From Euglena gracilis (Eukaryota), in assembly GCA_039621445.1 (NCBI GenBank), contig CP154954.1, positions 24,192,954-24,256,953 on the forward strand: 64,000 nucleotides of DNA. The letters are read 5' to 3'. The notes under the pieces are model-generated. The model was not told the DNA's origin. It ran no database searches and saw only the letters and a list, made by a program, of their open reading frames with translations. Positions 2,019-61,980 of the stretch are shown piece after piece (within the stretch, counting starts at the first letter, position 1; every line of letters begins with the position of its first letter). A program made the position numbers and the translations under genes.

Positions 2019-2407
2019 TGCGAAAAATCAACCGTAAAGGTGAAAGAGTGTAATTGTCCAGCACTTCGCCATTACGAAGTCTGGTGACGATGGTGTCATA
2101 CACCGGATCATTCGCGAAAGAACAGTGGGGAAGGGGACTCCGTGCGCGTAATACGCCGGGGTCCGGACGTGCTTCCACGTCGGCGCCTTCCACGCACTGG
2201 TGCGAACATGAATAGTTGTGAAACGGGAAAAGAATCCAAAAGATTGTCCGCAAAGTCGTTTCGACGTGAGTATTCGTCAGCTTCTTGACTTCCATGAAAA
2301 GTCGTGTCTCCCTCATCCGGGTTCCCAGGGTAATACCAAGGGGCCCGACTGAGCGGATCCGCTACTTTCTGTGTGTGACCAGGGGTATAAATAACCAAAA
2401 GGTTGAA

Positions 2408-2905: not shown

Positions 2906-2986
2906 ATGTATCGCGTAGTATTGTCAATGGGCTAATCCCAAAAATCCTTTGAGGTGAGTAATCGTTTTGATTACCTCAGGGGTCCA

Positions 2987-8662: not shown

Positions 8663-9817
8663 CGTTGTGAATTGTGTGGAGACTGTGCTTGAGGGATCAG
8701 GTTTTTGTCACTGGCCCATTGTGGCAGTGGAGCCATTTGACCAAGATCATTGAGGGCTGTCCGTAAACAATCGTCGGCGTCCTTGGGAAGGATGTCCATG
8801 GCAGCAGGCAGTCCCAATACAGAGGGAGCTCTTCGACAGAAGTCCACCACTTGAGACAATCTGGCAGGCACGCGTTGAAATAGTGGATCCGAGATTCCCA
8901 GTCCACCGCATCTGATGGCCAGGGAGACTTGCAACCATTCTTCTGGGGTGCAAGGGGAGCCGACCATGCCACTGAATGTTTCCCGAATAATTCCCGACAA
9001 CGTCTTGCATGCCGCTGTTGCAGAGGAGATTTTGCAGGCGCGCAAGAGGTCATTCACTTTGCAAGCGGATAAGCAACACCGAAGCAAGGTGAATTGCACA
9101 TGCGATTGAGGTAGGTGCCGAAGTACTGTGCAAGAACGTCGGATGTCTTCAATGCGCTTATTCCAAACTTCTTCACAGAAGCGGTCATCTTGGGGGTGGT
9201 GGACAGGGACCCCCAAAACTTTCAGACCAGAACCAGCAACAAAGGCGGTCAGTGGTATTTGATGTAAGGGGCTATCCTGTGGCGTGCCAGGGGGAATGCA
9301 AGGGACACCTTCTGTTGATGTGAACGCTGGTCCCCACAATCGACATTTTGCAGGGTTCACGGCCAACCCAAGCGTGGCTGCCTCGTGAATAAGAAAGGCA
9401 AGGGCATTGTGCAATTGGGCTGGCGATCCCAGCAGATGGGCATCATCCAAGTACCACCCCTGCCATTCGACCAAAGGTGAGAGGCCCTCACAAAGGTCTT
9501 GCACACCCCAGGCGAAAGCTGCAGGTCCGCATGGGTCGCCTTGTTGAGCTCCCCTCTGGGAAGGCAGACAATGGTTTCCACAATACAGCTTGCTGTGTTG
9601 GGCGTAGCACGAATCCAGCCAAGGGCACACTTCTGGGCATCGTCTACGGATGGATTGCAGGATTTTTTCCCGTGACAAGGAGTTGAAGGCATTTTTGAAA
9701 TCCACTTGAAGCAGCCCCCAGCGATTGTCTCTGTCCGAGTGCAGAGTGTCCACCATCTGTTGGATTCCCATTGCGATCAGTGGACATGCATTCGGCACAC
9801 CAACGCCACATTGTGGA
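8539..9817 (-). pseudogene. Copy A reverse transcriptase core
   Basis: DFKNAFNS, GAQQGDPCGP, WYLDD, LKVLGVP, GGLGI. Confidence 0.9.
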
Positions 9818-11479
9818 GAGCCTCCCGGACCCGGAAAAAGCGTTATTGAGTTGAAAATGAGCGTTTTTCGACCCGCCAGGGCACCTTTTTGGGCCGCCAA
9901 CCCATTGATTTTGGGTCAAAACCGGGTCAAAAAAGTCGAAAAATATCGAAAAAAATTTTTCGCCCAAAACCATGTTTTTGAGCCTCCTGGACCCGGAAAA
10001 CATCAAAGCATTTACCACCATGGGATGACGCATGAGGCATTTGCCAACCAATCGGCGGAGTGTTTCACCTGCTGCGATCGGGCGAGTGTCTTCATCACAC
10101 ACTGTGTGCTCCACAAGGTTTCCAAAAGCATCCTCTTCCATTGCTGTTTGTTTGTTCTGTTTTCGCAGAGGTGTCAACCTGGCGGAGGAAAGAATTGGGG
10201 CCATGCCGGGGTGGACACCGTTTGTAATTGCCCGACAGATGAAGGTATCAAGCACTTCGAGGAGGTCATCTCCACAAGCCCCTGGGTAGTCTCCAACCAT
10301 GGCCTTGAGGTGGTCAGGTCTCAGGCCAGAGGGTCCCGGTGCGGATTCCTTTGGGAACCCGAATATAGCTTTGCGCAAATTTTGTAATCGCTCTTTTGTG
10401 CTTTCCGGGTCCGAAGGAAAGGTAATCGTTTGTGAAGAGTCGGACACTGGGATGCGCGGTGGAGGCTCAGGTGGGTGAAGTTCACGCAGCCTTTGAATTA
10501 CTTTTGGGTCATTGCTGTTCTGAACCCCCTCAGAGGTGAGCTCTCGGCAGGCTTTTGAAATAGCCCACCAACCCCCATTGGCCAAAATCACATTGCTGGG
10601 GTTACGCTATTCTCTGCTCCATGCCCACCATCCCTTCATCCCACTTTTGAGGAAATTTCTTTTGATGACCGCGGCACCCTTGTATACCTGCCTCGTGGAG
10701 CCCTCCTCAATGTCAATCAAACCTACCTGCAATTGTTGAGGCATTTCAACAGGGAACCTGGCTGGGAAACCCTGCACGCCTTGTGGGGCTTCCCCAAAGC
10801 GGTGCTTTGTCCTTTGCAGCGTGGCGGGCGATCGAACTGGGCGATGGTGGGGAGAAAAATTGCATAACGAGCTCGCCTGTATCTCACCCGTCCTGTGTTT
10901 GATTCTTGGTTGGACTCCAGTCTCCCACAAAAGCCACAAGGCAGACAGACAAGGCAAAAAACAGCACTGGCAGCCAAGGCAACTGAAGAACGGTTCCTCT
11001 CCCGCATTGAAGCCTTGTTGGCCACGGGGTCTAGCTGGGGCTGGTGACGATGCTGCTGCCGTTGTTGCCACTGAGTATGAAGAGCTGGCACCCAAAGGGG
11101 GGTTGGAGAAGTTCAGGAAAGGGGTCGCCTGATTTGCTTGCATCCACATGGCCCCAACGTCTGACGGGGGGAAGGGTCCTGGTCCTTGTGTGCCAATTGG
11201 GTTCTCCATGATGACCGTGGAGCACATTGAGGGGAGGCCTTGTTGGCCAAAGAACAATGGACCTGGCAGATTTGGGAACCAAGATCCCCTTTCCAATGGT
11301 GGCAGTGCGGGTGGTGGTGTGGTCGGGGGGATGGAAATTTGTGATGCTGGCGCCATGTCAACGTCCTCACCCGACACCGACGGGGGCTCTGCGGGCGGTG
11401 GTGCTGTAGGAGGGATGGAGATTTGTGATACTGGTGCCATGTCAATATCCTCACCCGAAACAAATGGTGGGTCTGCAGG

Positions 11480-11518
11480 AGGTCCGGGGTTACTTTCAAT
11501 TTCCCCACAGGTCAGCAA
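11480..11518 (-). other. 2A-like motif, variant (LLTCGEIESNPGP)
   Basis: Translation in ORF 10607-11914; D-to-E change in the DxExNPGP core. Confidence 0.75.
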
Positions 11519-11859
11519 AGACCGACCTCGTCCTGCTCCCCCCGATGCTGCCAGGGTAGGCTGCGTGCTGTCTTTTGCAGGAGTGTAAAGCACAAGCACT
11601 TTTCTTTGTTTGGCCCACGATGGGTGGTTTTTTCCTTTCATCGGACAGGGAACCTGGGGGTGGTCAAGTTCATTTTGCTGAGGTGGGGAGGTTGCAGGCA
11701 AGCAGAATCTGGCAGAACTGGCTGGCTGGGGAGCCATTGTTGCAGACCAAAAAGTGGTGCTGTCTGGCAGGGGGGCCACTGTTGCAGTCCAAAATGTGGA
11801 GGAACATGGTTTGCCAGTTTGTCGGGGGCTTTTCAGGCTGAGAGCAAAATTGGTGTCAG

Positions 11860-12780
11860 GGGAGGCCTTTGCAGGCCCATGGCATTTGCAGGCCACTGGG
11901 ACAAAATGCTGCAACAGGTGTCACGGGGGGGCCTTTGCAGGCCCAGGGCCTTTGCAGGCCACTGGGGCAAAATGGTGTTGGAGGGGGGCCTTTGCAGGCC
12001 AAGGGCCTTTGCAGGCCACTGGGGCAAAATGGTGCAACAGACCGAAATGGTGTCACAGGGGGGCCTTTGCAGGCCCAGTGACTTTGCAGGACACTGGGGT
12101 AAAACAGTGTCACTGAGGGGTTGGGGTGTCAATGTCAAGTCAAAACTGCTGCAAAAAGTGTCAACAGATGAAAGGAGTTTCACTTCAGGACACAGGTTTT
12201 CACTGGCACTTTCCAACAAAGCAAACAAAGCAAAAGAGAATGCACAGAGAAGGAATGCAAATAGGTTCCAGGTGGCAGTGGGGGGCTTACAACAGATGTT
12301 GGTGCAGCCACTGGCCCTGAGTCTGGCAATGAAAACCAAAACTGTGAAAAGATGTCTGATGCCTGGTGTGAGATGACAGGGGTAAGGATGGAGGACAATG
12401 TTTGAAAGCAATCTGGGGGGTTGGATGGGGAAGATGTCAGCACCAGAAGGTTTCCCTGCATGCAAATGGAAAGGTTGATGATGGGTGACCTTTGGAGACC
12501 CAAAGAATGGTTGTATGCATGATGGGTTTGCAGTGGTTGGGCATGATAGAAGGGGTGGGTATGCAGTGATTGGGGGGCTGACCATTGGGGGGGGCCTTTG
12601 CAGGCCCAGTGGCTGGGGGGGCCTTTTCAGGCCCATTGGCTGTGGGGGCCTTTGCAGGCCCACTGGCTGGGGGGGCCTTTTCGGCCCAGAAGGGTTGGTG
12701 GGGGCCTTTTCAGGCCCAGTGGCTGGGGGGGCCTTTTCAGGCCCAGAAGGGTTGGTGGGGGCCTTTTCAGGCCCAAAGAA
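11860..12780. repeat. GGGGCCTTT(G/T)CAGGCCC hairpin-unit tandem arrays in the copy A 5' region
   Basis: Many imperfect copies at about 11860-12090 and 12590-12780; equivalent arrays at 17360-18130 in copy B. Confidence 0.85.
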
Positions 12781-13571: not shown

Positions 13572-16500
13572 TCAGACAGAATATGGTGAGTGGGCGGAAG
13601 ACAGGGTGATCTCATCTTTGGAAGAATACAAGCTCCAAACGAGCTGTCTGCTGATTTATCTGATAAGTGTGAAGGACAGGCCTTGCCAAATGTCTGCTTC
13701 TGCGGCGCGCCGTTGCCACCCTTCCCGCTGCCCCAGAAGGGCCTTGAGGAGGGTGGCCATCAAGGAGCGTGCCTCTTGTCCCATGCCCCCGTAGCAGTCC
13801 ATGACGAATGGCATCATCCGCCAGCCCAGGCGTTGGCATGTTGCATCATATTTGGCATGCTTTTCAGCCTCCTGACGTGTTTGCCATTGTGAAAGGCTCT
13901 CTGCACTTCGCAGCGGATGACTTTGCGCAAGTGTGTGGCGGATTGTCACATCCACTGCAACGGGTCCATCACTGTCCAAGCGAGGAATGAAGATATCCCC
14001 AGGCCGTGAACGGTCATCAGCTCGTTATTCTTTACGGGCTGTAAATCCTGCCTTCTGTGTTGTGGTTGTCAGAAAATCTTGGACAGCCCCGTGCCGCCGG
14101 GTGATGAAGTTTGATTTGCAGCAAACGAGGTGGTGTCCAAGAAAATCTGATTGTCCAAAGCATTTGGGACAGAGGTTGGGATCGGATTCTATTGGTGTGA
14201 GAGTCATTCCGAGGGACCAACGAAGTGTGCACCGGAATTCAGCCGTGGGTAACAGGGTGCCGAGTCCTTGAGATGGTGTCAAAGCGGCCCATGCCATAGC
14301 GTGTGGTTGGCATTGGCTTGCGAAGCGTACAGCATCAGGTCCATTCAATGTGTCCCGAAGTGTTTTCTGGCGGGCAAGCATGCTCTGCTGATTCCACCAA
14401 CGTTGTGAATTGTGTGGAGACTGTGCCTGAGAGATCAAGTGTTTGTCAGTGGCCCATTGGGGCAGTGGGGCCATTTGACCAAGTTCATTGAGGGCTGTCC
14501 GCAAACAATCGTCAGCGTCTTTGGGAAGGATGTCCATGGCAGCGGGCAGGCCCAAGACAGAGGCAGCTCTTCGACAGAAGTCCACCACTTGAGACAATCT
14601 GGCAGGCACACGTTGAAATAGTGGATCCGAGATTCCCAGTCCACCGCATCTGATGGCCAGGGAGACTTGCAACCATTCTTCTGGGGTGCAAGGGGAGCCG
14701 ATCATGCTACTGAATGTTTCCCGAATAATTCCCGACAATGTCTTGCATGCCGCTGTTGCAGAGGCTATTTTGCAGGCGCGCAAGAGGTCATTCACTTTGC
14801 AAGCGGATAAACAAAAACGAAGCAAGGTGAATTGCACATGCGATTGAGGTAGGTGCTGAAGTACTGTGCAAGAACGTCGGATGTCTTCAATGCGCTTATT
14901 CCAAACTTCTTCACAGAAGCGGTCATCTTGGGGGTGGTGGACAGGGACCCCCAACACTTTCAACCAGCAAGAAAGGCGGTCAGTGGTATTTGGTGTAAGG
15001 GGCTGTCCTGTGGCGTGCCAGGGGGAATGCAAGGGACACCTTCTGTTGATGTGAACGCTGGTCCCCACAATCGACATTTTGCAGGGTTCACGGCCAACCC
15101 AAGCGTGGCTGCCTCCCGAATCAGAAAGGCAAGGGCATTGTGCAGTTGGGCTGGCGATCCCAGCAGATGGGCGTCATCCAAATACCATCCCTGCCATTCG
15201 ATTAGGGGTGAGAGGCCCTCACAAAGGTCTTGCACACCCCAGGCGAAAGCTGCAGGTCCGCATGGGTCGCCTTGCTGAGCTCCCCTCTGGGAAGGCAGAC
15301 AATGGTTCCCACAATACAGCTTGCTGTGTTGGGCGTAGCACGAATCCAGCCAAGGGCACACTTCTAGGCAGCGTCTACGGATGGATTGCAGGATTTTTTC
15401 TCGTGACAAAGAGTTGAAGGCATTCCTGAAATCCACTTGAAGCAGCCCCCAGCGATTGTCTCTGTCCGAGTGCAGAGTGTCCACCATTTGTTGGATTCCC
15501 ATTGCGATCAGTGGACAAGCATTCGGCACCCCAACGCCACATTGTGGAGGACTCAGTTCTTTCAAAGCGTTTACCACTGTGGGATGACGCATGAGACATT
15601 TGCCAACCAATCGGCGGAGGGTTTCACCTGCTGCGATCGGGCGAGTGTCTTCATCACACACCGTGTGCTCCACAAGGTTACCAAAAGCATCCTCTTCCAT
15701 TGCTGTTTGTTTGTTTTGTTTTCGCAGAGGTGTCAACCTGGCGGAAGAAAGAATTGGGGCCATGCCGGGGTGAACACCGTTTGCAATTGCCTGACAGATG
15801 AAGGTATCAAGCACTTCGAGGAGGTCATCTCCACAAGCCCCTGGGTAGTCTCCAACCATGGCCTTGAGGTGGTCAGGTCTCAGGCCAGAAGGTCCCGGTG
15901 CGGATTCCTTTGGGAACCCGAATATAGCTTTGCGCAGATTTTGCAATCGCTCTTTTGTGCTTTCCGGGTCCGAAGGAAAGGTAATCGTTTGGGAAGAGTC
16001 GGACACTGGGATGCGCGGTGGAGGCTCTGGTGGGTGAAGGTCACACAGCCTTTGAATCACTTTTGGGTCATTGCTGTTCTGAACCCCCTCAGAGGTGAGC
16101 TCTCGGCAGGCTTTTGAGATAGCCCCGTGGCCAACAAGGCTTTCAATGCGGGAGAGGAACCGTTCTTCGGTCGCCTTGGCCGCCAGTGCTGTTTTTTGCC
16201 TTGTCTGTCTGCCCTGTGGCTTTTGTGGGAGACTGGAGTCCAACCAAGAATCAAACACAGGACGGGTGAGATACAGGCGAGCTCGTTCTGCAATCTTTCT
16301 CCCCACCATCGCCCAGTTCGATCGCCCGCCACGCTGCAAAGGACAAAGCACCGCTTTGGGGAAGGCCCACAAGGCGTGCAGGGGTTCCCCGCCGGGTTCC
16401 CTGTTGAAATGCCTTAGCAGTTGCAGGTAGGTTTGATTGACATTGAGGAGGGCTCCACGCGGCAGGTAAACAAGGGTGCCTCGATCATCAAAAGAAATTT

Positions 16501-17458
16501 CCTCGAAAGTGGGATGAAGGGATGGTGGGCATGGAGCAGAGAATGGCGTAACCCCAGAAATGTGATTTTGGCCAATGGGGGTTGGCGGGGGTCTGGCTGG
16601 GGCTGGTGACGGTGCTGCTGCGGTTGTTGCCACTGAGTATGAAGAGCTGACACCCAAAGGGGGGTTGGAGAAGTTCAGGAAAGGCGTCGTCTGATTTGCT
16701 TGCATCCACATGGCCCCAAAATCTGAGGGGGGGAAGGGTCCTGGTCCTTGTGTGCCAATTGGGTTCTCCATGATGACTGTGGAGCACAGTGAGGGGAGGC
16801 CTTGTTGGCCAAAGAACAATGGACCTGGCAGATTTGGAAACCAGGATCCCCTTTCCAATGGTAGCACTGCTGGTGGTGGTGCGGTCGGGGGGATAGAAAT
16901 TTGTGATGCTGGCGCCATGTCAACGTCCTCACCCGACACCGACGGGGGCTCTGCGGGCGGTGGTGCAGAAGGAGGGATGGAGATTTATGATGCTGGCGCC
17001 ATGTCAATATCCTCACCCGACACAAATGGTGGGTCTGTAGGAGGTCCGGGGTTACTTTCAATGTCCCCGCAGGTCAATAAAGACCGACCTCGGCCCGCTC
17101 CCACCGATGCTGCCAGGGTAGGCTGTGTACTATCTTTCGCAGGAGTGTAAGGCAAAAGCACTTTTTTTTGTTTCAGCGGAGAGGGAACCTGGGGGTTGTC
17201 AAGTTCACTTTGCTGAGGGAAGGTTGTAGGCAAGCAGAATCTGGCAGAACTGGCTGGCTGCGGGGCCACTGTTGCAGACCAAAAAGTGGGCGTGCTGTCT
17301 GGCTGGGGGGCCACTGTTGCAGGCCAAAATGTGGAGGAGCATGCTTTGCCAATTTGACAGGGGCCTTTCAGGCTGAGAGCAAAAATGGTGTCAGGGGGGG
17401 GCTTTGCAAGCCCATGGCATTTGCAGGCCACTGGGACAAAATGCTGCAACAGGACCAA
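13572..17458 (-). pseudogene. Copy B polyprotein: 2A, N-terminal region, RT, CCHC, RLE
   Basis: ORFs 16985-17458 and 14960-16939 are in the same frame; APGPSGLRP, RPIAAGETLRR, QQGDP, YLDD; 14025-15077 and 13656-13979 continue it. Confidence 0.88.
17042..17080 (-). other. 2A (StopGo) peptide, canonical (GRGRSLLTCGDIESNPGP)
   Basis: Exact DxExNPG-P core in frame with the downstream RT ORF. Confidence 0.85.
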
Positions 17459-18404
17459 AAGGTGTCACAGGGGGGCCTTTGCAGGCCCAGGGCCTTTGCA
17501 GGCCTCTGGAGCAAAATGGAGTTGGAGGGGGGCCTTTGCAGGCCCAGGGCCTTTGCAGGCCACTGGGACAAAATGGTGCAACAGATCGAAATGGTGTCAC
17601 AGGGGGGCCTTTGCAGGCCCAGTGACTTTGCAGGACACTGGGGTAAAACAGTGTAACTGAAGGGTTGGGGTGGCAAAATGTTTTTCAATGTCAAGTCAAA
17701 ACTGCTGCAAAAAGTGTCACTGAGGGGTTGGGGTGGCAAAATGTTTTTCAATGTCAAGTCAAAACTGCTGCAAAATGTGTCACAGCTTTTGGTGTAACAT
17801 GTGATGTGAAAACTGGGGGTTTGCCACTTCAATTGATCAGAGGTTTGGGATGCAATGCAGAACACAGAAAAGAAGACCTTGGAGCTGAAAGTAGCACTTA
17901 ATGGTTGGCAGAAGGCGGGCCTTTGCAGGCCCAAAGGGGGGGGCCTTTGCAGGCCCAAGATGAGGGGCCTTTGCAGGCCCAAATGGAGGGGCCTTTGCAG
18001 GCCCAAAGACTGGGGGGGCCTTTTCAGGCCCAGTGGCTGGAGGGGCCTTTTCAGGCCCTGTAGCAGGGGGCCTTTTCAGGCCCAGGGCCTTTTCAGGCCA
18101 GTGGTGGTGTTGAGGGGGCCTTTTCAGGCCCAATACAGCCCACAGCAGCATGGTGAAGTTCTGCAGCAGCAGACCAAAGGGGTGAGAAGCCCAAGAACTT
18201 GAGTTCTTCTTTGTCTTGTCTTGAGCTTGTACTTTTGCTTGACTTCTGCTTCTGCCTGCACCAGCAGGACTTCTTCTGCCTGCACCAGCAGGACTTCTTC
18301 TGCCTGCACCAGCAGGACTTGTGAGTAACTTTCGATGATAGTTGAACTCTTGACTTGGATATTTGTCCCCACCAGGGGCTTTCAATTGTCCGCCATGTAT
18401 TATG

Positions 18405-26857: not shown

Positions 26858-27205
26858 CAGGGTTCGATATAAGGAGGGCGTACATGGTTTAGGTGGGGGG
26901 GGTGTCCCCCCCCACCCCCCCCCCCTCCGACCCTCGGGGGGGTTCCCGGGACCCCCCCCAAAAAGGGTCAATTTTTTCCTCCGGCGCTTCGAGCCGAAAT
27001 TTTTTTGCATTTTTGGCACATTTTTGCCCCAAAAGTGCCCAAAATGGCACTTTTGGTCGTTTTGGGGGGTCAAAAAATTTTCGGTCACCCAGACCGCGCC
27101 ACTGTTTAGGTGGGGGGGGGTGTCCCCCCCCCCCCCCCCCCCCTCCTGGCCCGCAAGGGGGGGGTCCGGACCACCCCCCCCCACCTGTCCTTATATCGAA
27201 CCCTG
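26858..27205. mobile_element. hAT-type MITE, 8-bp TSD
   Basis: CCCGTGAC|CAGGGTTCGATATAAGGA...TCCTTATATCGAACCCTG|CCCGTGAC. Confidence 0.92.
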
Positions 27206-39660: not shown

Positions 39661-39810
39661 GTTTTGGATCTACAAGATTTATTTATTTGTGCGCAGAAAC
39701 AAGAAATATTTTTGCTTATGCTTCCTGTTTTCCATTTGTGAGTGGAGCGTGACTTTGATGAATGACCAAAGCCGATGTCATTTTCAAAGCATCATGGATG
39801 GAATGTTTCA

Positions 39811-40690
<880 letters not shown>

Positions 40691-40691
<1 letters not shown>

Positions 40692-40920
40692 ACACTTCCA
40701 AAAGTGTGATTTCAGAGGAAGCGGTGCCAGAGTTCAAAACGCCTTGTATTTTCGAATTGTTTGCTGAGAAGTGTTTACTGATCATCAAGAAGAGTTCACG
40801 AATCGAGGGCCACAAAACGACCAACGTCTCCATCAAGACTCTGAAGGTGGTGGCGGTGGATCCTGACAGAATTGAATTGACATATGATAGCAAATGCCGA
40901 CTCTACCGGCTGGAAAATCG
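40691..40920 (+). CDS. Probable internal exon(s), possibly a PH-like fold
   Basis: Open protein-like frame [17 protein letters not shown]...[26 protein letters not shown]; boundaries unresolved. Confidence 0.45.
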
Positions 40921-42332: not shown

Positions 42333-45026
42333 TTTCCAAGTACGATTTTTGAGCATGTTTTTAGCGTTTTTTGCGCGTTTTTCAATTTTCTTTCCAGCAC
42401 ATTTCCTTTTTTTGCTTTTTGACGCATTTTTTTTCATTATTTGCCAAAATTTCGCAATGTCAGATTTTTTTGGCCATTCCCCCCTTTTTTTGCATTTTTT
42501 TTTGTATTTTTTGAACTGACATTTTGCTCATAATTCAATACGTGAGCAATTCGATTTTCAGACTTTTGCACTTTCTGCCAGAATTTGCACATTTTTGCGC
42601 ATTTTTTTCGAGGCTTGGCTGGCGCATTCCTGCCTCCCCTGATTTGCCACAGCAATTTTGAAAGTGTGCGCTGCGACTGTCGCGCCCCCATTCAATTTCT
42701 TCTTGAATTTTTTTGTTGTGTAGTTTTTTGTAAGTTTTTTTCAGTTTGTGTCGTTCTTCACCATGTCAAAGAAGTTCTGTGCCGCATCCACCGCGACAAA
42801 ATGCTCATATTTTTTTTAGAATAATGAGAATGATTGTGCAGACTACATTACAAATGAAACATAACTTCCCAGGCAGTCCCCTGATGCAGAAAACTGTCTG
42901 GGAGGTTGAAAAATGGAATTTCTGCACAGCCCAGTCATTAATGACATTTGCATTTGCGGACACCTGAAGAATGGCAAAGCCATTCGTTGGGCAAAGCCCG
43001 ATTCCAGTACCCTGCCCAGTCCGTCTTCATCAGGAAACATTGGCAAGAGGATGGCCTTGGTTTGTTCTGTAACCCTATGCGGATGCTGGCACCCTTGATT
43101 TCCCACCAACCTGCCCTTCCCAATGACTTTCTTCGCATTGTGATCGGATCCTGAAGGCAAGTTCAAAAACATCTTCAAAACCTTCAGTAGGATCCGTGTC
43201 GAATTGTGTGTGTGTGTGTGCACCCCCAAGGCAAGGGTGTATTCCAAAGGTGTATACTTTCACCCCAGCTCATTACCCCCCCCCCCAGGTTGCTGGGGCC
43301 AGTGTCATTATCCCCCCTTAAAGGGTTTGGCTTGGTTGCTCCCTTGGCCATTGGTGGCAACATGCCCCCCCCCCGCCAGGCTGTGCGGAAATCCCTGAAA
43401 CCCTATGGGCGGTGGTTGGGGAGTCGACCCCCCTCCCTGCTGGGTGGGGGGCGACCCCACCAGCACCAGGCCTTGTTATATTTTCTGGCGCCGATTTTTA
43501 GGTCACAATCTTCCTTCGGCGCCGAAGGAATTTTTCCTTGTGGGTTGTGTGGTGGGTGGGTGGGGGTCGACCCCCATTTTGCCAGAGGGCCTGATGGCGA
43601 GGTCGACTCCCCTCCCCAGACCTTCCCGTACATCCCCCCCCCCCCAAGTTTGACCACAGTGGTTTCCCCAATCGATTCCCCCCCCCCCCTAACCAGTATT
43701 CCCCTCTTTGGCCGAGGGTAAAAGAACTGTCATTTGGGGGGGGGGGAGGGTACGTCATGTTGGGGAGTGAATGTGGTGCATGACTTTTCAGCCCTGCCTT
43801 GTGCTGTCGTGGTGGGCCTGTGGCCAGTCCACACAATCACCTGGTCACTGGCCGACCCCCCCCCCCCCCCCGAGGGTGAGTGACTGGTTTTATCAGAGTG
43901 ATTGACTGGTTTTTTTCTTGGCCCGGACCCCCTCCCCCGGGGGGGGGGGTCGGCAAAAAACCACCAAAGTGACCCGGCGCCGAAGGCACTGGAAAACTTT
44001 TTTTTGGCTTTTTTTCACGTTTGTGGTCAAATTTCCTTTGGATTCCAGAGCGGCCGACCCCCCCAGGGGGGGAGTGACTGACTTGTCTTCCAAAAAAGAG
44101 ACTTACTGGTTTTGGAAAGAGTGGAAGTGACCCCCCTCCTCCCGGGGGTCGGTAAAGAACTGTATGGGCCAGCCTCTTTACTCAGTAATGGATCAAACTC
44201 TGTACATGGCCTGACTACCGTGGCTTCTGTGTCATTCACGCAAACAAAAATGCCCCTCAACCATGCAAAAGCGTCGATTACTTTTCATTTCTAAGAAAAC
44301 CAGCAAACACTGTTAAACAGAAGAATATATGGTGTCTCCACTGTTCTCATTCATCTTTTTTTTTCCATTCGCAGCCCAGAAACAAAAAGCCTGTTCCTCA
44401 ATACAGCTCCTAAGGTTATTGGATGGGCAATTTTAATATTTGGGCGGTCTGCAGCGAAATTGAAATCAATAAAACACCATTTCCAATAAAGGAAACACGC
44501 AAAATTTGAAGAAGAAGTATAAGAAAGTGGAGGCAGTGATTTGGTCAAGGTGACCAATTTGGGCTATAAACTGGCCAAACATGGCCCCAAATCAACCAAA
44601 TTGGTCATCTTGACCAAATCACTGCCTCCACAGCCAGCGCTAACAGGGTACGTCACCCACCCAGTATTGACCACCTCGCCCCCTTGCATGGGCTGTGGAT
44701 AGTGACAAACAAAAGTCACAAATTGGAAAAGTTTACAACTTGCTTCAGATTTGCACAAAGCCCTGTGGCAGTGGTGCTGTGCGGGGCGGGGCTGTGCTGG
44801 TGAACACACCATCACCACAGCCCATGGGCTAACATGGGCTTTGGGCTTGGGGTTGAGTACCACCCACAAAGTCAAGGGGGTATACAAATGATTCGGCACA
44901 CTGTGCAAATGCAAACACATATGCATATGCAAATACAAATGCAAGTGCACATACAAATACAAAACATGGACACAAACACAAATGGAAATACAAATTGCAG
45001 ACACAAATGCAATACAACACAAGTCC

Positions 45027-46150
45027 AGTACAGCACAGCACAGTACAGTACGCACACAGCACAGTACAGTACGCACACAGCACAGTACAGTACAGTACAG
45101 TACAGTACAGTACAGTACAGTACAGTACAGTACAGTACAGTACAGTACAGTACAGTACAGTACAGTACAGTACAGTACAGTACAGTACAGTACAGTACAG
45201 TACAGTACAGTACAGTACAGTACAGTACAGTACAGTGCAGTACAGTGTACAGTACAGTGCAGTACAGTGTACAGTACAGTGCAGTACAGTGTACAGTACA
45301 GTGCAGTACAGTGTACAGTACAGTACAGTACAGTACAGTACAGTACAGTACAGTACAGTACAGTACAGTACAGTGCAGTACAGTGTACAGTACAGTGCAG
45401 TACAGTGTACAGTACAGTGCAGTACAGTGTACAGTACAGTGCAGTACAGTGTACAGTACAGTACAGTACAGTACAGTACAGTACAGTACAGTACAGTACA
45501 GTACAGTACAGTGCAGTACAGTGTACAGTACAGTACAGTACAGTGTACAGTACAGTACAATGTACAGTACAGTACAGTGTACAGTACAGTACAGCACTGT
45601 GTACCAGGCTTCTTTTTAAGTCACCCGACCCCCCCCCCCCTGGGGGGTGGGTGGGTGGGTCCGGGCCGGACCCCCCCGGGGGGGGGGGGGTCCCGCGCCG
45701 GAGGCGCTGGGTATACCTTTTCGGTGCGAAGCGCCGAAATTTTTTGAAAATTGCCTTTAACGGGCCCGATTTTTGGGGGGGGGGTCCCGCCCCCCCCGGG
45801 GGGGGGGGCCCGCGCCACCCTGGGTGGGTGGGGGGACCGGACCCCCCCGGGGGTCTTAAAAAGAAGCCTGCTGTGTACAGTACAGTACAGCACTGTGTAC
45901 AGTACAGCACTGTGTACAGTACAAAGTGCAGTACAGTACAGTACTGTGTCCAGCACAGTACAGTGCTGTGTACAGTACAATACAGTACTTTGTGCAGTAC
46001 AATGCACTACAGTGGTGTCTAAGTGCAGTACAGTGTTGTGTCCATTACAGTCAGTACAGTACAATACCGTGTGCAGCACAGTACTGGATACAGCACAGTC
46101 AGGCTGGGGGTAAGGGTTAGGGTCAGTGCTGTGTACAGCACAGTACTGTG
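45027..46150. repeat. (CAGTA)n microsatellite, degenerate at the ends
   Basis: Direct repeats, interrupted by a MITE at 45605-45870. Confidence 0.97.
45605..45870. mobile_element. hAT-type MITE, 8-bp TSD
   Basis: CTGTGTAC|CAGGCTTCTTTTTAAG...CTTAAAAAGAAGCCTG|CTGTGTAC. Confidence 0.93.
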
Positions 46151-46884: not shown

Positions 46885-48621
46885 AGCATCCTGGCGCATT
46901 TTCTGTGCCTCAAGAACCGTGGCTTCTCACCACCCGCCGAAGGCTTTATCAGATCCGAAACCCTCGCCTTTGGTCTCTGCCCCCTCCCTCATTGGCTGGG
47001 AGGGTTCGACCCCTATGCTTTGCATTTAAGACGATCAACATCCAACCCCAAACAAAAAAGACCAAAAAATAAATCAAACAAAAAACAAAAAACAATAAAC
47101 AAAACAAAAAATAAATAACAAACAAAAAAATCCAACCCCAGTCGCATTGAACGCAGTGGAGACACCCCACCGGGAGGCGAAGCCGGGCCCTGGCAGCCAC
47201 GTGTCGCCCACCGGGGGCAGCTTCCGCAGCAACGTGAAGGTCCCGGTCCCCGGCGGGTCGGGAGGCCGGCTGTCGCCGAAGGCCCCGCCCTCCCCCCAGC
47301 CGGGGCGGGCACCAGTCACCCCCAGCAACCGCCTTTCCCCGAAGTCCCTGCCTTCCGACCAGGGGGACACAGGTCTCTGGGCTTTGACATTGCATATGAA
47401 CACCACTCAAAAAAGAGCGGAGAAAGGTGGAATGACTGGGGGGGGGGTGTCCGGGGTTCCTTTGATGCTGGGTGGATACCCAATAAAAATGGTAGAATTG
47501 TTTCCAATTCCAAAGTGCAAGTATGACCCCCTCGAGGGCGTTTTCGCTAGGTATTGCTGACTGCCCATTGACCCTTCATTTTTGGGACAATTCATGTGCA
47601 AAATTTTTGGGTAAAATCCTTTTGAAATAATTTCACAAGTTTTTAAGTACCCCCCCCCCAGTCGTACGACCACCCCTCATTTACGACCACTCCCCGGTCA
47701 CAGGTTGCAGGTCATGGGGGTTTTATGACCCCCCCCCCCCGGTCACAGGTTGCAGGAACCCGGTCATACGACTAGGGGGGGGGTATTACCCTGTGCTGTC
47801 GTCCAGTTGGCTCAAGGTGCTTATACATCCCAAAAATCATTTTGTATTTTATACATTTGGGTTGGATTCCTTTTTTCATTCCATGGCCCTGTGGCTTTGC
47901 CCAACCTCCGTGGGACTGCTCTCAGGCATCTGCAGGTAAGCACCATTTTCCATGCACGGAATACAATTACCCCCTTCCCCCCAAATGAACACCCCCCCCC
48001 TCCCCAGTAAAGTGCAATCTCAAACTACACCCCCGTCCCCCCTGCCCAGACAAGTTGGCCTGGGATGAAGCTAGTGGGACAGGGTTGTTCTGATGTTGGC
48101 CATGCGCCGAAGGTTGCTCAGATTAAGAACCCCTGGCACGCGGCCTAAATTTGGGTCCGAATTTGTTTTAATTGTGGCTTACGCCCAAATGCAATTCCTG
48201 ACAGGGTTGCATTTTGCATTGCATGCAAAGCGTGTCTTTTTTTTGGTCGCTCTAAACAGAAATGGCTTTATTGTTTTGGCACAATTTAGAAATTGGCCTG
48301 AACTTGACCAGTTCATATGTTACAAATGGAACATCACCAAAATTTTCCGGCCTTGTCCTGAATGGTTCTATCGACAGGCTTCACATGGCATCTCCACACT
48401 GCTGCCTCCACCCCCATGGGGACACCAACAGTGAGAAATGGGGGGTGATCCGCATTTTCCATTTTTTCCACATTAGAGTGGCTTTGGGGTAATATTTATT
48501 TCGGGGAGAGATTTAAAATCTGGAGGTCATTTTTTTTTGCAGAGACTCATGAAAAGTTGCCAAGCGAAATCAGCGCCAAAAAGCATTTTTACTCCAGGCA
48601 CACCCTTCATATTGTCGTTTT

Positions 48622-48656
<35 letters not shown>

Positions 48657-51600
48657 CTTTTTCTTTCACATTGTTTTTTTTTGATTTCACAATGCTTCTC
48701 CGTTCCTTTTTTCGAGCTTGCGTGCGTCTGTGCGCGTGTGCCCGGGTGCGCGGGTGCACCTGCCTGCCTGCAAGGCCTGCACCTTCGCCAACCCCCCGGA
48801 CAAGGACGCCTGCACCATGTGCGCCACCAAGAAAGGCTCCTCTGGGCCACGGCGGGAGAGCCCCTCGCTGCCGCTCCCTTCCGCCCCGCCGCTCCCCGCC
48901 AGTTCACCAGGGCCGGCGTCGAGGGGGGCTGAGCCACCCAATGGCAGTGAGCGAATGGAGGAGCTTTGGGCACCTGGGAGTGCCCGAAATGAATCCAAAG
49001 GTGACCGCCACCTCAGGCACCGGGTGGTGCGCTGTTAATTGGACCCCCACCTGTCTGATTTTTGTTTGTTTTTCTTCAGAGTTACCATTAAAACTCTGGA
49101 GGTGAATATATTATGTTATAAAATTGGGATTGGGACTGCTTTGGACAACCGGGGCTGTGGTTTTATTTAGACTCTGCGCTTGTGGCACCCTTCTATTGGG
49201 GGGGGGGGCGGGTTTAGCCGGGTTCAGGGGCTGCGAGTTGACATTTTTTTCTGTTGGACATTTCCCCCCCATTTTTCGTCACAAACCTCAGTTGGGGCGA
49301 ACTGGGTTTTCAGGCCGCCCGGAATTCTCCCTCTTTTGACTGCAGCTTGACACCTTCGGCTGGTCTGAGGGATCCGCTGACCTGATTCGACTGCAGCTTC
49401 CTATTCGCTTTCCAGCAACCTTTGGTAGGCGGGCGAGAAGGTTCCCGCCTTTTGGCCATCGCTGGAGGCCACCCCTGCTCCGTCGGCGGAGGGGCCGTGG
49501 GTGTGCGAGGTCTGCACACTGCGAAACCCGGCGACGCTGATGCAGTGCAGCGCCTGCCTCGCGCCCTGCCGGAGCAAAGACCCGTCGCAGTCCCTCGCAG
49601 GCCACCGGATCACTGCCCCCCCCTCCCCGAAATGGGGATGCCCAGCCCGGAATGCAGGTGGGGGGATGTGCAGATTTGTGCATTTCTTCAAATTGTACAA
49701 GAATCTTGTGTTTTTAACACGCTTTTCGGCATTTTTGCTGCATTTTTTGAACACTTTTTGGTTTTTCAGGTTTGTTTTTGCATTTTTTTTGTATTTCCCC
49801 CAATTTCACACATTTTTGCCTGTGTATTTTTTTGAAAAAAAGTTATATTTCCTTGTTTTTTTCTGTGTAATTTTTTTGAAAATTTGTGTTTTTTTTGTAT
49901 GTTTTGGGGTGATTTTTACATTTTTTTTTAACATTTTGATTTTTTTTGCATCCGCCCCCCCCCCCGCATGCACAGTTTGTGCATTCTTGCGCCCTTTGAG
50001 CATCATTGCCAGGGTACCGCATATCTCTGCAGAATGGCTTTCACTCCCTGTGCTTTCTCCCTCACAATTGACTTCTGCAACACTGCACTTTTTTCTGACC
50101 CCCCCCCCCAAGTAAGACCCCACCAGGCTGTATTTTAGTCGGGTGCCGACCCCACCCGGGGGGTGGGCAGGCACCCCAAGGCCCTCCAAATCCGACCCCC
50201 CCCGGGGGTAGGGGGGTAGGGCACACGGCCAAAAGTGCCCTAGCACAGACCCGGCGCCGAAGGCGCCGGGGAGCCAAAATGGCCTATTTCCAAAGGAATG
50301 TGCCTGGGCACAGGCCCAAATCCGACCCCCCCCCAGGGGGGGGGGTAGTGCCTGCCTGGGCAGGCACTCATAGGCACTCCGGACCCCCCTCCCCACCCCG
50401 GGGTTGGTAAAAAAAACAGCCTGGACCCCACCCCAGGATTTTCGGGAAAATCCAAAATATACACCACCGAAAACAGAAAAAGACCCCAAAATGGGTGATT
50501 TTTTCTACATTTTTTGGGGTTTTTTTTGCTCCTCTCAAATGTGTTGCAATTTGCATTTTTGGGGACAATTTGCATTCATTGCCAAAAATCACCTTTTTTG
50601 ACCTATTTTTGGGCCATCCTACCGGAAGGTTTTTTTCGGCTAAATTTTTCAAAAAAATTCAAAAAGTAGATAACCCCCCAAAATAAGACCCCCTGGGTCT
50701 TTTTAGCAACGGACCCAAAAAGCAGACCCAGGGTCTTTTTTGGGGGTGTGTTTAGTTGCAAGGACGCAATAATCTCATGAATTTTTGGACGTCAACGCCA
50801 CAAATGTAATGTGATAAAGGAAGTCCGAAACGAAAAGTTTCAGGGCTTCTATTTGGTACAGTTACAAATTTTCCTCTTTGAGGTGAGACGTTCCAATCAC
50901 ACTTTGGGTAAATTGCTGAGGGAGTATGTGGTTTCTAAATCTTGCCCCATCCCCTGCCATGGGGGGCTGCTGGCGAACTTCAACAACGACGCCGAGATCC
51001 AGAAGTATGTCCAGGCCAGGGTTGTATGGGAAGCTCCGCAGACATGAGGTAGGTGGTAGGGGGGGGTCACCCCCCCCCCCCAGGGGGGTAAGGTCTAAGG
51101 TGGTAGGGGGGGGGTCCCCCCCCAGTTTCGGAAGGGGGGGTCCCCCCCAGAGATTCCCATACAACCCTGGTCCAGGCCCAGAAGGATTTGCTACAGTTGC
51201 TGCGCGCGGGACGTCTGACGCAGGGCGCGTACCAGAAGATGGCGCCCAAGGCCTCTGCTCAATCCGAAACCATCCCCAGTGGGAGGGGGGTTCTCCATCC
51301 ACTCGACAGGGAGGGACAGGGTATTACGTGAGCGTTGGCTTTGTACAGGGTTTTTTTTATTTGTGGACCCCCGGGGGGGGGAGGAGGTCCACGAATAAAA
51401 GGGGGGGGTAGGGTGGGTGGGTCCGGCCGAGACCCCCCCCCCCTGAGGGGGTCCCCCCAGGGAGGAGTGGGTTATATTTTTCGGCGCCTTTGGCGCCGAA
51501 TTTTTTTGAAAAGGTGCTATTTTTAGCAATCTTTGGCCATTTTCAGGGAAAAGAAAGTGGGTTCCCCAGGACCCTCCCCGCGGGGGGGGGGGGCCCCCGG

Positions 51601-54600
51601 GCCCCCGGGGGGGGGGGGGGGGGGGGGGCCCCCCCCTCCCCCCAGTCTTTAAAAAAACCCCTGTCAGGAGAGGGGAAGGGCCTCTCCCGCGGACCCCCCC
51701 GGAACCAAAAGCATTTCTTCTCCGGGGCTTTGTGCCGGAAGACTGCTTTTTATCACATTTCTTTGTTCATTTGTTGAAAAGATTGCGAGTTCGGGCACTT
51801 TTTGAAGCCCCCCCCAGAATTTTTTTGGGCAGAAGGGGGAGGGGGGAAGGGGGCACCAGATCCCCCTTCCCCCCGAGAAGCAACCCGGGGGGTAAAAAAA
51901 AAACCTGCGCAAATCACTCTTCTTCTCCTGGGGAGGCGGGGGGTTCCGAGCAGGGCTTTGGCGGCGCAGGGGCTGCAGGCCTCCTCCTCCAAGCCGGGCC
52001 ACCCCGGCGCGGCCAGCCCGGCGGCGGTGAAGGACGCGTTCGAGCTGCCGCAGGGCGTGTCGGAATCGGTGCTGAGGTCCGCCTCCCTCCGCCCGCCTTC
52101 CAGCCAACCGAGCATCCCTCCCCGGCGGTGGGAATATGTTTGTGGAACAGACTTCCACGAAGCACTTGGCCGAAAATGTGACCGAATCCAATTTTTTTCC
52201 TGGCATGCTGGACCAAAAGCTGGAATCCATGACACGTCAGTCAAACCCTGTAGGTTTATTCCGGAGTGTCTGACTGGATTTTTTTTTTGCTCCGGACCCC
52301 ACCGGGGTGGGGGTCGGCCAGGACTGGCCTAAATTTCGGCGCCGAAGGCCCCAGAAATTTTGGGGTATCGACCAAAGTCTATTCATTTTTGGCCGTTATG
52401 GCCGAAATGGCCAAGTGACCCTCAGGGTCCTCCCCGAGGATGGGAAGTGGGTGACTGGTTTTTCAAAAGTAACTGACTAGTTTTTTGGAATGAACTCCCC
52501 CCTCCGGTGAAGACCTCCCTTCTGGAGATAAATTCTTTTCTTTTCCTGTGCTTTGTGCCCCATCCTGAAGAACGTCATTCTCCCTCAACCCTCTGTTATC
52601 CTGTGGCGCATTTGCTCAAAACGCCCACACTGGCCTGTTTCGATATCAGCAGTCTCCACCACATATGTCGCCTTGTGGCCCCAAATACCACCCTCCCTTG
52701 CTGAAAGAACACCACCCTTGTGTGGTGAACAACGGATAAACCGTCATTTCCCAGTCGCTGGTATTCCAGAGGTGAGGCATTCTTACCTTGGCATGTTCCT
52801 CGACCGCGAGGCGCATTGCCCCAGCGTCGATCTGGAACTCACAGGCCATTCCCGTGTGGCGACAGCTTGCTACCTGCTTGAAGTCGGAGTGCTTCAGGCG
52901 GCCTTCCACCTGCTTGTACTCCTTCTTCCATTTTTCCAACATCTCCAAGTCATTGACCACGGGACAGCCCCCCCCCCCACCACGGGTTGTTGATCACAGC
53001 TTAGTGGTCTTGGGACAAGCGAGGGTATGATTATGACACGGGGTCCTGTCTCTCGCAGGCAGTGGTATGACTGGGACACCAAGCGGTGGATGGAGGAGCA
53101 CGTGCAGGTGGTGGTGGACTGGCAGCCCCTGGCCCAGGGCAACCTCCGCGTGGCGGTGCGGATGCTGGACCTCTCCCGGCCAGGGTTAGACGGGGGGTTG
53201 GGGGTGGGGGGTGGCTGTCCCCGACCCCTTCCGCCTGCAAGGGATGTTCCTCTGAAGAAAGACTTTCCCGTTGGTGCCTCGTGCATCGGTCCAATTCAGC
53301 CCCGAATGATTTCCACAAAGTGCAACGCTGTCCTTTTTGGCAAGGTCGGAGGCAAAAATCAGTGATCCAGACTGCATTATTGGCCAGGTCGGGCTGTTCT
53401 CTGAATTCCACCCCCTGGGACTTGCGTTAAACCCTGCTCCTGGCCCAAGGGGCAACGGGCTTGTGTGGCAAAGTACCTGAAGGTGTTGCCTTATCTTGTG
53501 CCACGTGGCTCAGTCAAATTATCAAGTTGCTGAATGGTTTTTTTTTTTTTTTAAGTGTATTTATCTTTATTCTAATTCATTTATATGTCTGTAGATTTTT
53601 CAATTAACCAATACCTGCGAAAAGAGCACCTTATGATTCAATGTGGTTGTATTTTTCAGAGAGCCTTATTTTAAAAATCCTGTTTTTTTGAAAGCAGGAA
53701 AAACGAAAAGTTTAATTTTTAACAATGTTTGAGGGTGGCAGAGTACTTCCTGAATTGATATATCCCATTGCCGAAAGGAACTGGGAACGGCACAGTCCCT
53801 TCAGACGAGGGTGTTGCAGGCCCTCCTGAATACCACATATCTCGATTATCGATGCCTGGAGTTAGAGTCCAAGGCGTTTTTTTTCCCTTTCTGTTGGGTG
53901 TATTTTCCAAACTCAAAAAACTTCCAAATCCAAACCACTTCACCAGCTGCTGTGGGGTAACCCTAACACTCACCCCACATGAAATTGAAACCCTTCCTGA
54001 AATTCTGGTAAATCAGAGATGCCCCTCTTTTCAACGTACCCCATCGTTGTGTCATTCATGAACCTTGACCTCATGAACCTTGTCAACCTGTGACCTTGAA
54101 CTTGTGTCATTCATGAACCTTTCAATCTTCAAATGGTTCCCAATAAAATTAAAAAAAATGCCTGCTCCACAGAGAGCCTTGCGTGACAACCTGAAGAAGA
54201 AAGGTTTGGAGATAGGCTTAGGGTTACGGTGAGTTCTGGGTGGAGGAGTGGTTCTTTGAAGGAGGGAATAGATCCCGGAGTTACGTCAATTTTCTCTAGG
54301 GTTTTTTTTTAAAAAGTATGATGCCTGCTTCCGCTGTGGATGTGTCAGCCGAAGTTGGTCTTTTGTGGGGGGGGGGAGCTGGTTACCGGGAAAATAAAAT
54401 TTGAGCAGGAAAGAACGTTTCGCAAAAAGTTCTCGTATTTTTGTCAGGATTTCCAACGTGGTTGATGCAGAATTTTCAACTCCAACTTAACTCTGCCAAG
54501 GATGTGATGATTGCTGTTATGATTGCTCCAATAAGATAGCAAAAATTTCAGTCCCCTCCCCCACAGTGTTGCAAGGAGTTTTCTGTGTTCAAAATCTCAG

Positions 54601-60700: not shown

Positions 60701-61980
60701 GCCGCCTCTGGCAGCGGGGTTGCCTTCTATTTGGACCCTACCTCCGCGATTTTTGCTGGTTTTCTTCAGAAATCCCATGGGGGGGGGTTGCGCTTGTAGC
60801 GAACCGCCGCCTTTGGCGGCGGCGGCGGCAGGGGTGTACGCTTTTATTTCGACCCCGTGCTTGTAGCGGCCCCGTGCTTCTATATGCTGTTTGAGCTTAT
60901 CGTGCCATCATCATCACAAATCAATTGTGTGTTTTCCAGACTTGATGACTTTAGGGGTGTGTGGCTTGCTCTCCATGTGCTCCTCCCTCCCCTGTGGCCC
61001 AACGTTGGAGGATTTGTCCTTGTTGAAGATGGAGATGGAGGAGTTCAACCACATTGTGGACCTTTTCAACGGCCTCGATAAGGATGGCAATGGCGTGGTA
61101 TGGTCCCCTTGCCTCGGCTTTCTGTACCTTTGCATGTGGCAGGGCGCGGATGGCCCACACCCCATCACCATTTCAGCCACATCCTTGAGTGCCGGCTGAA
61201 AAAATGAGTGATATGTGGGGGATGATGGGAGCGGCGCGGCAGGGGAGCATGTTTGGTTTTAGCTTTCAGTTTCAGTTTCAGTTTGAGTTTTCCCGACGTG
61301 CAGTCAAGAGGACCGGGGCTGGGGTTGTGGTCCCAGCAGGGGTTGCTCTTCGGGCATTGGAACTCCCGAATGATGGGCAGGGGTCTGTGCGCAATTCGAG
61401 GGTGATGAGGATAGCCTGCAAATGAAACTCATTTTTATCAAGGAAACGATCCATAGAAAACGAACGCTTACAAAGTGTCTTTTTTTTGAGGGATGGGGTC
61501 GAGGGATTCATGGCATGATATTAATTTTTTGTGTTTTATGACTTTTTTGATTTATGTCTGATTTTGTGGTCCTTTGTGCAGTGGATGGTTTCAGCCACCC
61601 TCGAAGCTTTGCAGTGGCCGCTCGACGCTCTGCAGCCGGCCACCTTCACCTGAACAACATCGCCGCTTTTCTAAGGTCTCTTCCGCCAGGCACCCCTCCC
61701 CCCCCCCTTCACAGCTGACGCCGCGCAAAAAGCTCCACCGAGAGGGGGGTGAAAAAGGGGGGATGAAAAAAAGGGGGGGGAAAGGGGAAAAGGAAAAAAA
61801 AGCCACTCCCCCGCCCCCTGTCACAGCTTCGGACGGACGGTGGGTGGACGAGTGCTGTCCCGCATGGACTCCGCCACCTTTGCGTTCAACCGGGAGAACA
61901 CGCAGTACCTCCTGCAGCTGGCCCAGAGCTCCGAGATCTCGTTCAAGCAGTTCCTGCTGTGGTACAAGGGCGTGGAGTGA
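46885..61980 (+). CDS. Multi-exon alpha-kinase (eEF2K/MHCK family) with two RanBP2-type zinc fingers and a C-terminal EF-hand
   Basis: Exons approx 46885-46972, 47142-47380, 48767-49020, 49429-49651, 50962-51013, 51175-51251, 51959-52076, 53059-53177, 53442-53482, 55481-55609, 56238-56264, 56564-56617, 56721-56813, 56992-57037, 57521-57578, 59207-59321, 59642-59698, 60382-60413, 61001-61097, 61850-61980. Yields [77 protein letters not shown]. Confidence 0.88.
48767..49575 (+). CDS. Two RanBP2-type zinc fingers (separate exons)
   Basis: [18 protein letters not shown] and [20 protein letters not shown] match W-x-C-x2-C-x3-N-x6-C-x2-C. Confidence 0.85.
50124..50423. mobile_element. hAT-type MITE, 8-bp TSD, nested in an AATAAGACCC-family repeat
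   Basis: GACCCCAC|CAGGCTGT...ACAGCCTG|GACCCCAC. Confidence 0.9.
51014..51174 (+). mobile_element. MITE-derived intron (element 51017-51169, 16-bp TIR, perfect 8-bp TSD)
   Basis: GTCCAGGC|CAGGGTTGTATGGGAA...TTCCCATACAACCCTG|GTCCAGGC; removing 161 nt restores [17 protein letters not shown]. Confidence 0.88.
53178..53441 (+). other. Nonconventional intron, MITE-like, 7/8 TSD
   Basis: CTCCCGGC|CAGGGTTAGACG...CGTTAAACCCTG|CTCCTGGC; splicing gives [18 protein letters not shown]. Confidence 0.88.
55610..56237 (+). other. Intermediate intron (GC-AG with paired ends)
   Basis: FLE|AWVIC; TTGGAGGC vs TCGCAGGC flanks; CGGGCCTT can pair with AGGGCTCG. Confidence 0.75.
56618..56720 (+). other. Nonconventional intron (CAC/GTG variant, 14-bp terminal stem)
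   Basis: aacCACACATCACCCC...GGGGTGATGTGTGgcccc; splicing gives KHNN|NWGFV. Confidence 0.88.
56814..56991 (+). other. Nonconventional intron
   Basis: agcCAGGCTG...CAGCCTGcctgg; splicing gives FMIV|DIQG. Confidence 0.88.
57579..59206 (+). other. Nonconventional intron
   Basis: ggcCAGGCTT...AAGCCTGccgct; splicing gives [17 protein letters not shown]. Confidence 0.85.
57720..57846. repeat. (CA)n microsatellite; (CT)n at 57445-57472
   Basis: Direct repeats. Confidence 0.95.
59699..60381 (+). other. Nonconventional intron
   Basis: gacCAGCGAAA...TTTCGCTGtgacc; splicing gives KLHDF|IRDLRP. Confidence 0.75.
60414..61000 (+). other. Nonconventional intron (3+6 geometry)
   Basis: gggCAGGGGCGGG...CCCTCCCCTGtggccc; the EF-hand frame requires 6 rather than 5 nt after CTG. 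Confidence 0.55.

Follow-up and report, generated by a model that had tools for sequence, protein, structure and literature searches.

The nonconventional (NC) introns of euglenids are reported to be excised as full-length circles, after the conventional introns and independently of lariat chemistry (Guminska 2018, 2021, as cited in the literature consulted). Their boundaries have recently been described by the code 5'-N3CDG-/-CH'GN5-6|R(exon)-3', and in the knock-in experiments in Euglena gracilis the form N3-CAG/CTG-N5|R and the pairing of a stem were both required (Nomura et al. 2025, PNAS, PMC12501133); the synthetic introns following these rules were spliced in E. gracilis like the natural ones (PMC12501133). 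The genome-wide consensus of the NC introns of this species has been given as CCAGG at +3..+7 and CCTG at -9..-6 (PMC11170887). The origin of such introns is called 'unclear' in PMC12501133, the consulted text of which does not tie the spacers to the length of a duplication, while a transposon origin, hypothesised since 2014 (PMC3935182), was put forward again in 2024 (PMC11282704) and in 2025. In the papers searched, this hypothesis rests on the short inverted ends of decayed introns and on their flanking repeats, which resemble target-site duplications (TSDs). Here, a locus is described in a stretch of 64,000 nucleotides of E. gracilis (GCA_039621445.1, contig CP154954.1, positions 24,192,954 to 24,256,953 of the forward strand; hereafter the window, numbered from its first letter), which bears on this question. 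[quoted passage not shown]

Anatomy of the element and its absence from the transcript

The MITE-like element occupies 51017-51169 on the + strand (153 bp, with the ends CAGGG...CCCTG), and by sequence inspection and repeat search its terminal inverted repeats (TIRs), 51017-51032 and 51154-51169, are complementary at 16/16 positions. It stands between two copies of the 8-bp duplication GTCCAGGC, identical at 8/8 positions, the left of which (51009-51016) encodes ..V Q A.. and the right of which lies at 51170-51177 (both on the + strand); the two copies were recovered from the sequence, by repeat search and by the blind scan described below. The direct repeat is found as GTCCAGGCC at 51009-51017 and 51170-51178, its ninth base being the element's own first C, and the inverted arms may be extended to 21 nt at 95% complementarity (51016-51036 and 51150-51170). 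The element starts with the 16-mer CAGGGTTGTATGGGAA and ends with its exact reverse complement; in the 64-kb window this word has exactly two matches, one per strand, at the two TIRs (0.07 expected by chance), and none of 100 shuffles held two or more. The interior is composed of G-run/C-run palindromes, of a type spread throughout the window, is non-coding and has stops in the host frame, so that the small size and the lack of coding content, together with the TIRs and a duplication of fixed length (8/8 here and, with unrelated sequences, in three further elements of the window), are those of a MITE. The element and one duplication make 161 nt (161 mod 3 = 2), and when these are taken out, both frames fuse into one open reading frame (ORF). 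Thus, the intact 153-bp MITE with perfect 16-bp TIRs and TSD, and the continuous frame left by the removal of an insert that is not a multiple of 3, both of which had been proposed in a first-pass annotation of this DNA, were confirmed, the former by the repeat search, the count of the 16-mer and the blind scan. The described anatomy is real and far beyond chance. An assembly artefact is ruled out by the raw reads: the 14 runs (presumed to be DNA, or of a kind not given) contain 0.74-0.90 of the words sampled from a stretch that is one-third element, and the contigs of the DNA read set X4, at the unique depths of 171 and 178, span both junctions of the element (50708-51040 and 51168-51326) with 0 differences. 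Among the listed runs that contain the stretch there is no RNA run; the runs X15-X20 (presumed RNA) have 0.14-0.16 of the words, roughly the share that exon words alone would yield, and do not enter the evidence here.

The host gene (36112-61977, + strand, at least 26 coding blocks) encodes a protein of 745 aa with C1, two zf-RanBP, alpha-kinase (residues 425-610) and EF-hand domains. This protein, P0001 (EukProt EG_transcript_3313), was the single one found when searching with the downstream exon, and its name and the literature suggest that it comes from a Euglena gracilis transcriptome; against the window it aligns as 26 blocks in colinear order, 36112-61977, at ~100% identity. The reads of three RNA-Seq runs with the same species label cover discrete exons of the + strand, including 50907-51016 and 51127-51245, and the bins 50907-51016 and 51127-51346 contain the two halves of the host exon (50976-51245, + strand, 109 nt in the mRNA by the RNA reads and the mapping of P0001), both neighbouring introns of which are nonconventional; the RNA depth is found also in the bins of the exons at ~48769-48906 and ~49483-49584. 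The exon end at 51245 is marked by an identical loose end in 8 reads of the run X21 and 7 reads of the run X24 (agreement 1 and 0.99, respectively), which resumes at 51968. The read coverage, this 51245->51968 loose end and P0001 establish that the element lies within a coding exon, as had been claimed.

P0001 runs straight across the site with 161 nt, that is, the element and one duplication, missing, which rests on one assembled transcript. The homologues P0002 and P0003 (~50% identity) align without a gap through the site, so the removal of the element restores a conserved sequence, whereas with the element kept in, the frame would run into a stop at 51045-51047, before the kinase domain is reached. 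A search for short protein fragments over the junction, in the spliced or the retained form, had 71 candidates, none scored. Non-exonic flanks or a retained element had been named as the outcomes contrary to the annotation; what is found are flanks covered by RNA and a protein without the 161 nt.

Splice registers and the route of removal

The protein-guided mapping gives 10 equivalent starts (51009-51018) for the 161-nt intron. The register 51014-51174 (+ strand) consists of N3 (GGC), CAG, the interior, CTG and N5 (GTCCA), and the next exon starts with a purine, G at 51175; CAG is thus placed at +4..+6 and CTG at -8..-6, with a donor spacer of 3 nt, an acceptor spacer of 5 nt and 16/16 pairing after CAG and before CTG, in agreement with the code of PMC12501133, and the intron is absent from the mature mRNA, as judged from P0001 (one assembled transcript) and from the allele argument given below. 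The same register matches the genome-wide NC consensus (PMC11170887) letter for letter. The predicted fold of the RNA holds a stem of 51014-51032 with 51154-51172 (minimum free energy -110.3 kcal/mol, z -3.97), and none of 200 shuffles was as stable. The 3-nt and 5-nt spacers add up to 8, the length of the duplication, so that NC excision restores the pre-insertion frame exactly. This arithmetic was not found stated in the literature consulted; the review of 2024 (PMC11282704), which places the TIRs at +4..+6 and -8..-6 and 'TSD repetitions' at the boundaries, comes close to it.

The events may be pictured as follows. A MITE-like transposon with CAG...CTG ends and an 8-bp duplication would have inserted recently, the host being E. 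gracilis or a species very close to it; the inverted repeats would then pair in the pre-mRNA (51014-51032 with 51154-51172), and the NC splicing machinery would recognise CAG and CTG at the base of the stem, cut 3 nt before CAG and 5 nt after CTG, ahead of the purine, and join the exons. CAG and CTG would thus be contributed by the termini of the element, and the spacers by the duplicated target. We infer that the transcript derives from an allele with the element, that splicing takes the NC route over the GC-AG one, and likewise the positions of the cuts, which are not readable from the product because the 10 registers give one mRNA.

The absence of GT/GC-AG boundaries belongs to the definition of the NC introns, and here a GC-AG register is present (51015-51175, + strand, by the same mapping and with an identical mRNA); by the boundary criterion, the intron 51014-51174 is, therefore, a 'hybrid' or 'intermediate' one. 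Both dinucleotides, GC and AG, come from the duplicated target and not from the element, so that the intron owes its hybrid character to the target (..AGGC) and has had it ever since the element inserted. Two claims of the first-pass annotation are borne out by this, namely that the TSD contains CAG|GC and by a slide of 1 nt yields a GC-AG intron with the same product (it begins 1 nt past the NC register), and that an 'intermediate' intron can arise at birth.

It has to be considered, accordingly, whether the conventional spliceosome removes the element as a GC-AG intron (51015-51175), its NC-like features being incidental, which we regard as unlikely. The GC-AG reading belongs to the 10 registers and has, besides its boundaries, G at +5 and an only moderately C-rich sequence before AG, with the 3' end ..TTCCCATACAACCCTGGTCCAG. 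In the published data on E. gracilis, only G at +5 is prominent in the logo of the 'GC-AG' class (659 introns), which demands nothing beyond what is present here, and the conventional 3' ends show a C-rich tract and CAG (PMC11170887). However, both splice sites lie within the stem, at the base of its 19 bp, and the 5' site, GCCAG, agrees with GTGTG, the consensus for U1 pairing (PMC11170887), at only 2/5 positions; the introns of E. agilis with both sets of motifs (0.8% of introns) pair in the NC-like manner and are judged by the authors to be NC-processed (PMC12501133), and the same view was taken by Milanowski in 2014 for the analogous intron 5 of tubA (PMC3935182). GC and AG both being duplicated target, it is by chance that the insertion site offers them. 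In the NC consensus, C stands at +3, and a 1-nt slide therefore reads 'GC' whenever +2 is G, which would explain a logo with G at +5 only; part of the GC-AG class of E. gracilis may, by this inference, be NC introns read one base off.

Several observations on the reads and the variants weigh against NC removal from this allele. P0001 differs from the window at a few residues, e.g., R vs L at residue 281, and most RNA reads differ from it at 48852, 48869 and 49524 (G>T, T>G and A>C, respectively); since these variants are absent from the window, the transcripts come from another allele or strain. Among the 15 joints listed of 116, no RNA read passes over a junction of the 51013/51175 type and none is a junction read from a genotyped individual, the only joint of the 15 with RNA support being that of a single X24 read (50157-50348). 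The RNA depth of the bin that is purely element (51017-51126) is 2.99, 1.74 and 4.76 in the three runs vs ~6-10 in the exon (by own arithmetic), and the element may be partially retained. The latter reads are attributed largely to other copies of the element because the non-exonic RNA depth follows the high X4 depth and the flanks in X24 are unlike, which suggests such an origin: the appreciable non-exonic RNA depth (>0.4) is found only where the X4 depth is at least 100,000, and 5 reads of X24 cross into the element at 51017, their flanks being unlike. In the bins 50577-50796, with the X4 depth of 687-2,887, the RNA traces reach up to 0.32 per direction, and the unique intron bins tested (49587-50026, 50467-50576 and 50797-50906) contain 0 reads in all three RNA runs.

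The variants raise the possibility that the element is not spliced at all, the filled allele being null or broken down through nonsense-mediated decay (NMD), and the intact transcript coming from an empty allele, a homeologue or another strain. The non-window variants of P0001 and of most RNA reads do imply more than one allele, no junction read of a genotyped individual stands among the joints listed, and the transcripts that retain introns would be lost to NMD and, therefore, invisible (PMC12501133). Nevertheless, X4 shows at 49524, at full depth, the base of the transcripts, and it has both junctions of the element at the unique depth, and its unique-depth contigs pass 51017 without the break expected from an empty allele; the 14 runs with most of the sampled words speak in the same direction, and the element satisfies every sequence item of the code, the synthetic introns of which were spliced in E. 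gracilis (PMC12501133). An expressed empty allele, and with it the absence of splicing, is thus quite improbable. As a separate observation, the gene occurs in two or more alleles or strains, P0001 matching the non-window one, and part of the reads of X22 have C>T at 51205.

Relatives of the element and other introns of the gene

The whole window was scanned blindly for the CAG..CTG pairs 40-1500 nt apart, with the TIR identity of at least 12/14 and the 8-nt flank identity of at least 7/8. The scan yields four elements, the one at 51017 and three others, all with 8/8 flanks, and looser thresholds give no additions; as for the controls, not one of the 20 block shuffles gave a match, nor did the reversed sequence. 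The three intact relatives are all on the + strand: one of 300 bp with CAGGCT... ends and the duplication GACCCCAC at 50124-50423, inside the intron upstream of the host exon; one of 266 bp with the duplication CTGTGTAC at 45605-45870, inside another intron of the host gene; and one of 348 bp with CAGGGTT ends and the duplication CCCGTGAC at 26858-27205, outside the host gene, which has internal blocks in common with the element at 51017. They have the CAGG(G/C)T...CCTG ends and common internal blocks, and all lie in non-coding DNA. The 50124 element is of very high copy, with the X4 word depth of 0.2-1.6 million and loose ends at 50122-50124; RNA reads are also seen to enter it from many unlike flanks. 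The last base of the duplication is C in all three relatives and in 5/5 elements when read by eye, which looks like a target preference and not a part of the TIR. A TIR one base longer (C before CAG and G after CTG) was considered and rejected, G following CTG in only 2/5 elements. The start CAGGC is found in 2/4 elements of the window.

The element at 51017 itself looks multi-copy. The X4 contigs stop at 51016/51017 with 17 + 11 unlike flanks, and the X4 word depth inside the element is 538,345 vs ~170 for unique sequence (~3,000-fold), a value that is not a copy number, the depth being inflated by the shared G/C runs. Against this stands that a second full copy of the exact element was not recovered as sequence from the window or the metagenomes: the BLAST of the element against the window gives only itself and short G/C-run matches, and the scan of the metagenomes for both TIRs at the correct spacing gives 0 loci. 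The Rfam scan of the window has 0 matches. That the locus is no transposon but an old NC intron, the stem and the flanking repeat of which have arisen in place, is very improbable, for although the NC introns generally have paired ends and short direct repeats, and 84.4% of the E. agilis introns are 'slidable' (PMC12501133), the 16/16 and 8/8 perfection without a match in any of the 20 shuffles, the 28 unlike flanks at 51016/51017 with the word depth of ~3,000x unique, the three more elements of the window with perfect, unrelated 8-bp duplications in non-coding DNA, and the blocks in common with the 26858 element all speak against it.

With regard to the family, the hAT superfamily is characterised by an 8-bp target-site duplication and termini of the YARNG type. 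The duplication GTCCAGGC and the CAGGG start of the 51017 element fit this definition, and in these two features the element is like the hAT MITEs; it differs in that no hAT transposase or domain was found in the 16 scanned of the 89 window ORFs of at least 150 aa, which held only gypsy-like and other reverse transcriptase (RT) elements, and in that two window elements start with CAGGC. The hAT membership is, therefore, a lead only, suggested by the termini and the duplication.

Of the 25 exon junctions of the host gene, 22 were resolved, and the other three were left out of the intron counts. No GT/GC-AG option exists in 16/22 resolved introns, and the CA..TG geometry fits 12/22, a purine coming next in 11 of the 12. 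The designation of the 51017 element as the 'youngest case' by the first-pass annotation holds within the host gene, where it is the only intron of the 22 with 16/16 pairing and 8/8 flanks. The NC intron of 264 nt at 53178-53441 (+ strand), with the CAGGGTT...AACCCTG ends, 11/16 terminal pairing and the flanks CTCCCGGC and CTCCTGGC (7/8), probably goes back to the earlier insertion of an element related to this one. In the 11 other CA..TG introns, the mean flank match is 3.27/8 vs 2.45 in the permuted set (P = 0.015) and 2.09 in shifted registers, the sample being small and from one gene and the register being chosen among the allowed ones; this gives weak support to the possibility that the flank matches reflect decayed duplications.

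The two introns that flank the host exon, 51241-51967 and 49583-50975, are nonconventional, with no GT/GC-AG register; in the flanking intron of 722 nt, the model positions read CAA..TTG and the boundaries slide over 5 nt (GGCGC), and the RNA loose ends confirm its 5' boundary. At the three junctions left out of the counts (43038-44184, 47347-47899 and 61097-61855), a few P0001 residues are unplaced, for which small exons or allelic differences are likely. The introns of the host gene contain also a long dinucleotide-type microsatellite and a tandem minisatellite (about 39700-40730 and 44800-45620, from the repetitive ORF translations). The window as a whole is repeat-rich, with a gypsy-like retroelement, other RT elements and microsatellites. 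On the - strand, the ORFs of a gypsy-like long terminal repeat retroelement at 673-5332 encode an RT (RVT_1), an RNase H, an integrase core and a chromodomain with a Tf2-type SH3 domain, while another RT-bearing element is present twice, at 7832-11920 and 14025-17464, in diverged copies that have long ORFs in common and RVT_1 in both.

Comparison with known systems

The locus shows a starting state, in which an apparently multi-copy element with perfect TIRs and a duplication interrupts a conserved coding sequence, is missing from the transcript and already carries the complete NC signal as defined by experiment. That the sum of the spacers is one duplication would account simply for the odd 3/5-nt rule, and the locus provides a natural substrate in which mutations could tell the two splicing routes apart. 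A wider proposal, to which we give somewhat less than an even chance, is that the 3 + 5 nt spacer rule is the RNA-level mirror of the 8-bp duplication and that the still-active CAG...CTG-ended (hAT-like) MITEs are the source of most NC introns. If so, the exonic insertions before a purine at the position 6 of the duplication would be born precisely erasable, whatever the target sequence, and the 'intermediate' or GC-AG-looking introns would be the insertions into targets reading ..AG-GY at the positions 5-8; random spacers would give these at ~1 in 128 (own arithmetic), which is of the same order as the published 0.8%.

Among the titles and the starts of abstracts listed by the full-text searches, no report of an intact multi-copy MITE with an 8-bp duplication as a Euglena intron or within a coding exon was found. 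In comparison with the NC introns of PMC12501133, the intron 51014-51174 is alike in CAG at +4..+6, CTG at -8..-6, the spacers of 3 and 5 nt, the purine of the acceptor exon, the pairing, the slidable boundaries and the absence from mRNA, and it is different in being also an intact, apparently multi-copy transposon with perfect 16-nt TIRs and an 8-bp duplication. Intron 5 of the E. gracilis tubA gene ('C/I'; Milanowski et al. 2014, PMC3935182) likewise has direct repeats and several registers, a GC-AG register 1 nt downstream of the NC one, CA at +4,+5 and TG at -7,-6, and was judged most likely nonconventional; however, it has a short CAG repeat only and no recognisable transposon, whereas the 51017 element keeps the full duplication and the TIRs, and so the origin of its hybrid character in the target ..AGGC is directly readable. 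The introners and the MITE-derived spliceosomal introns of Micromonas and others (PMC11282704) are also short DNA transposons, non-autonomous and with TIRs, that stand in exons and are removed from the RNA, their duplication feeding the splice sites, but they depend on GT/GC-AG and the spliceosome, with 3-nt duplications in Micromonas, in contrast to the stem-dependent signals and the 8 bp of the 51017 element. The MITE origin of the NC introns has already been published as a hypothesis, and the present locus is a new and unusually clean case of a known kind.

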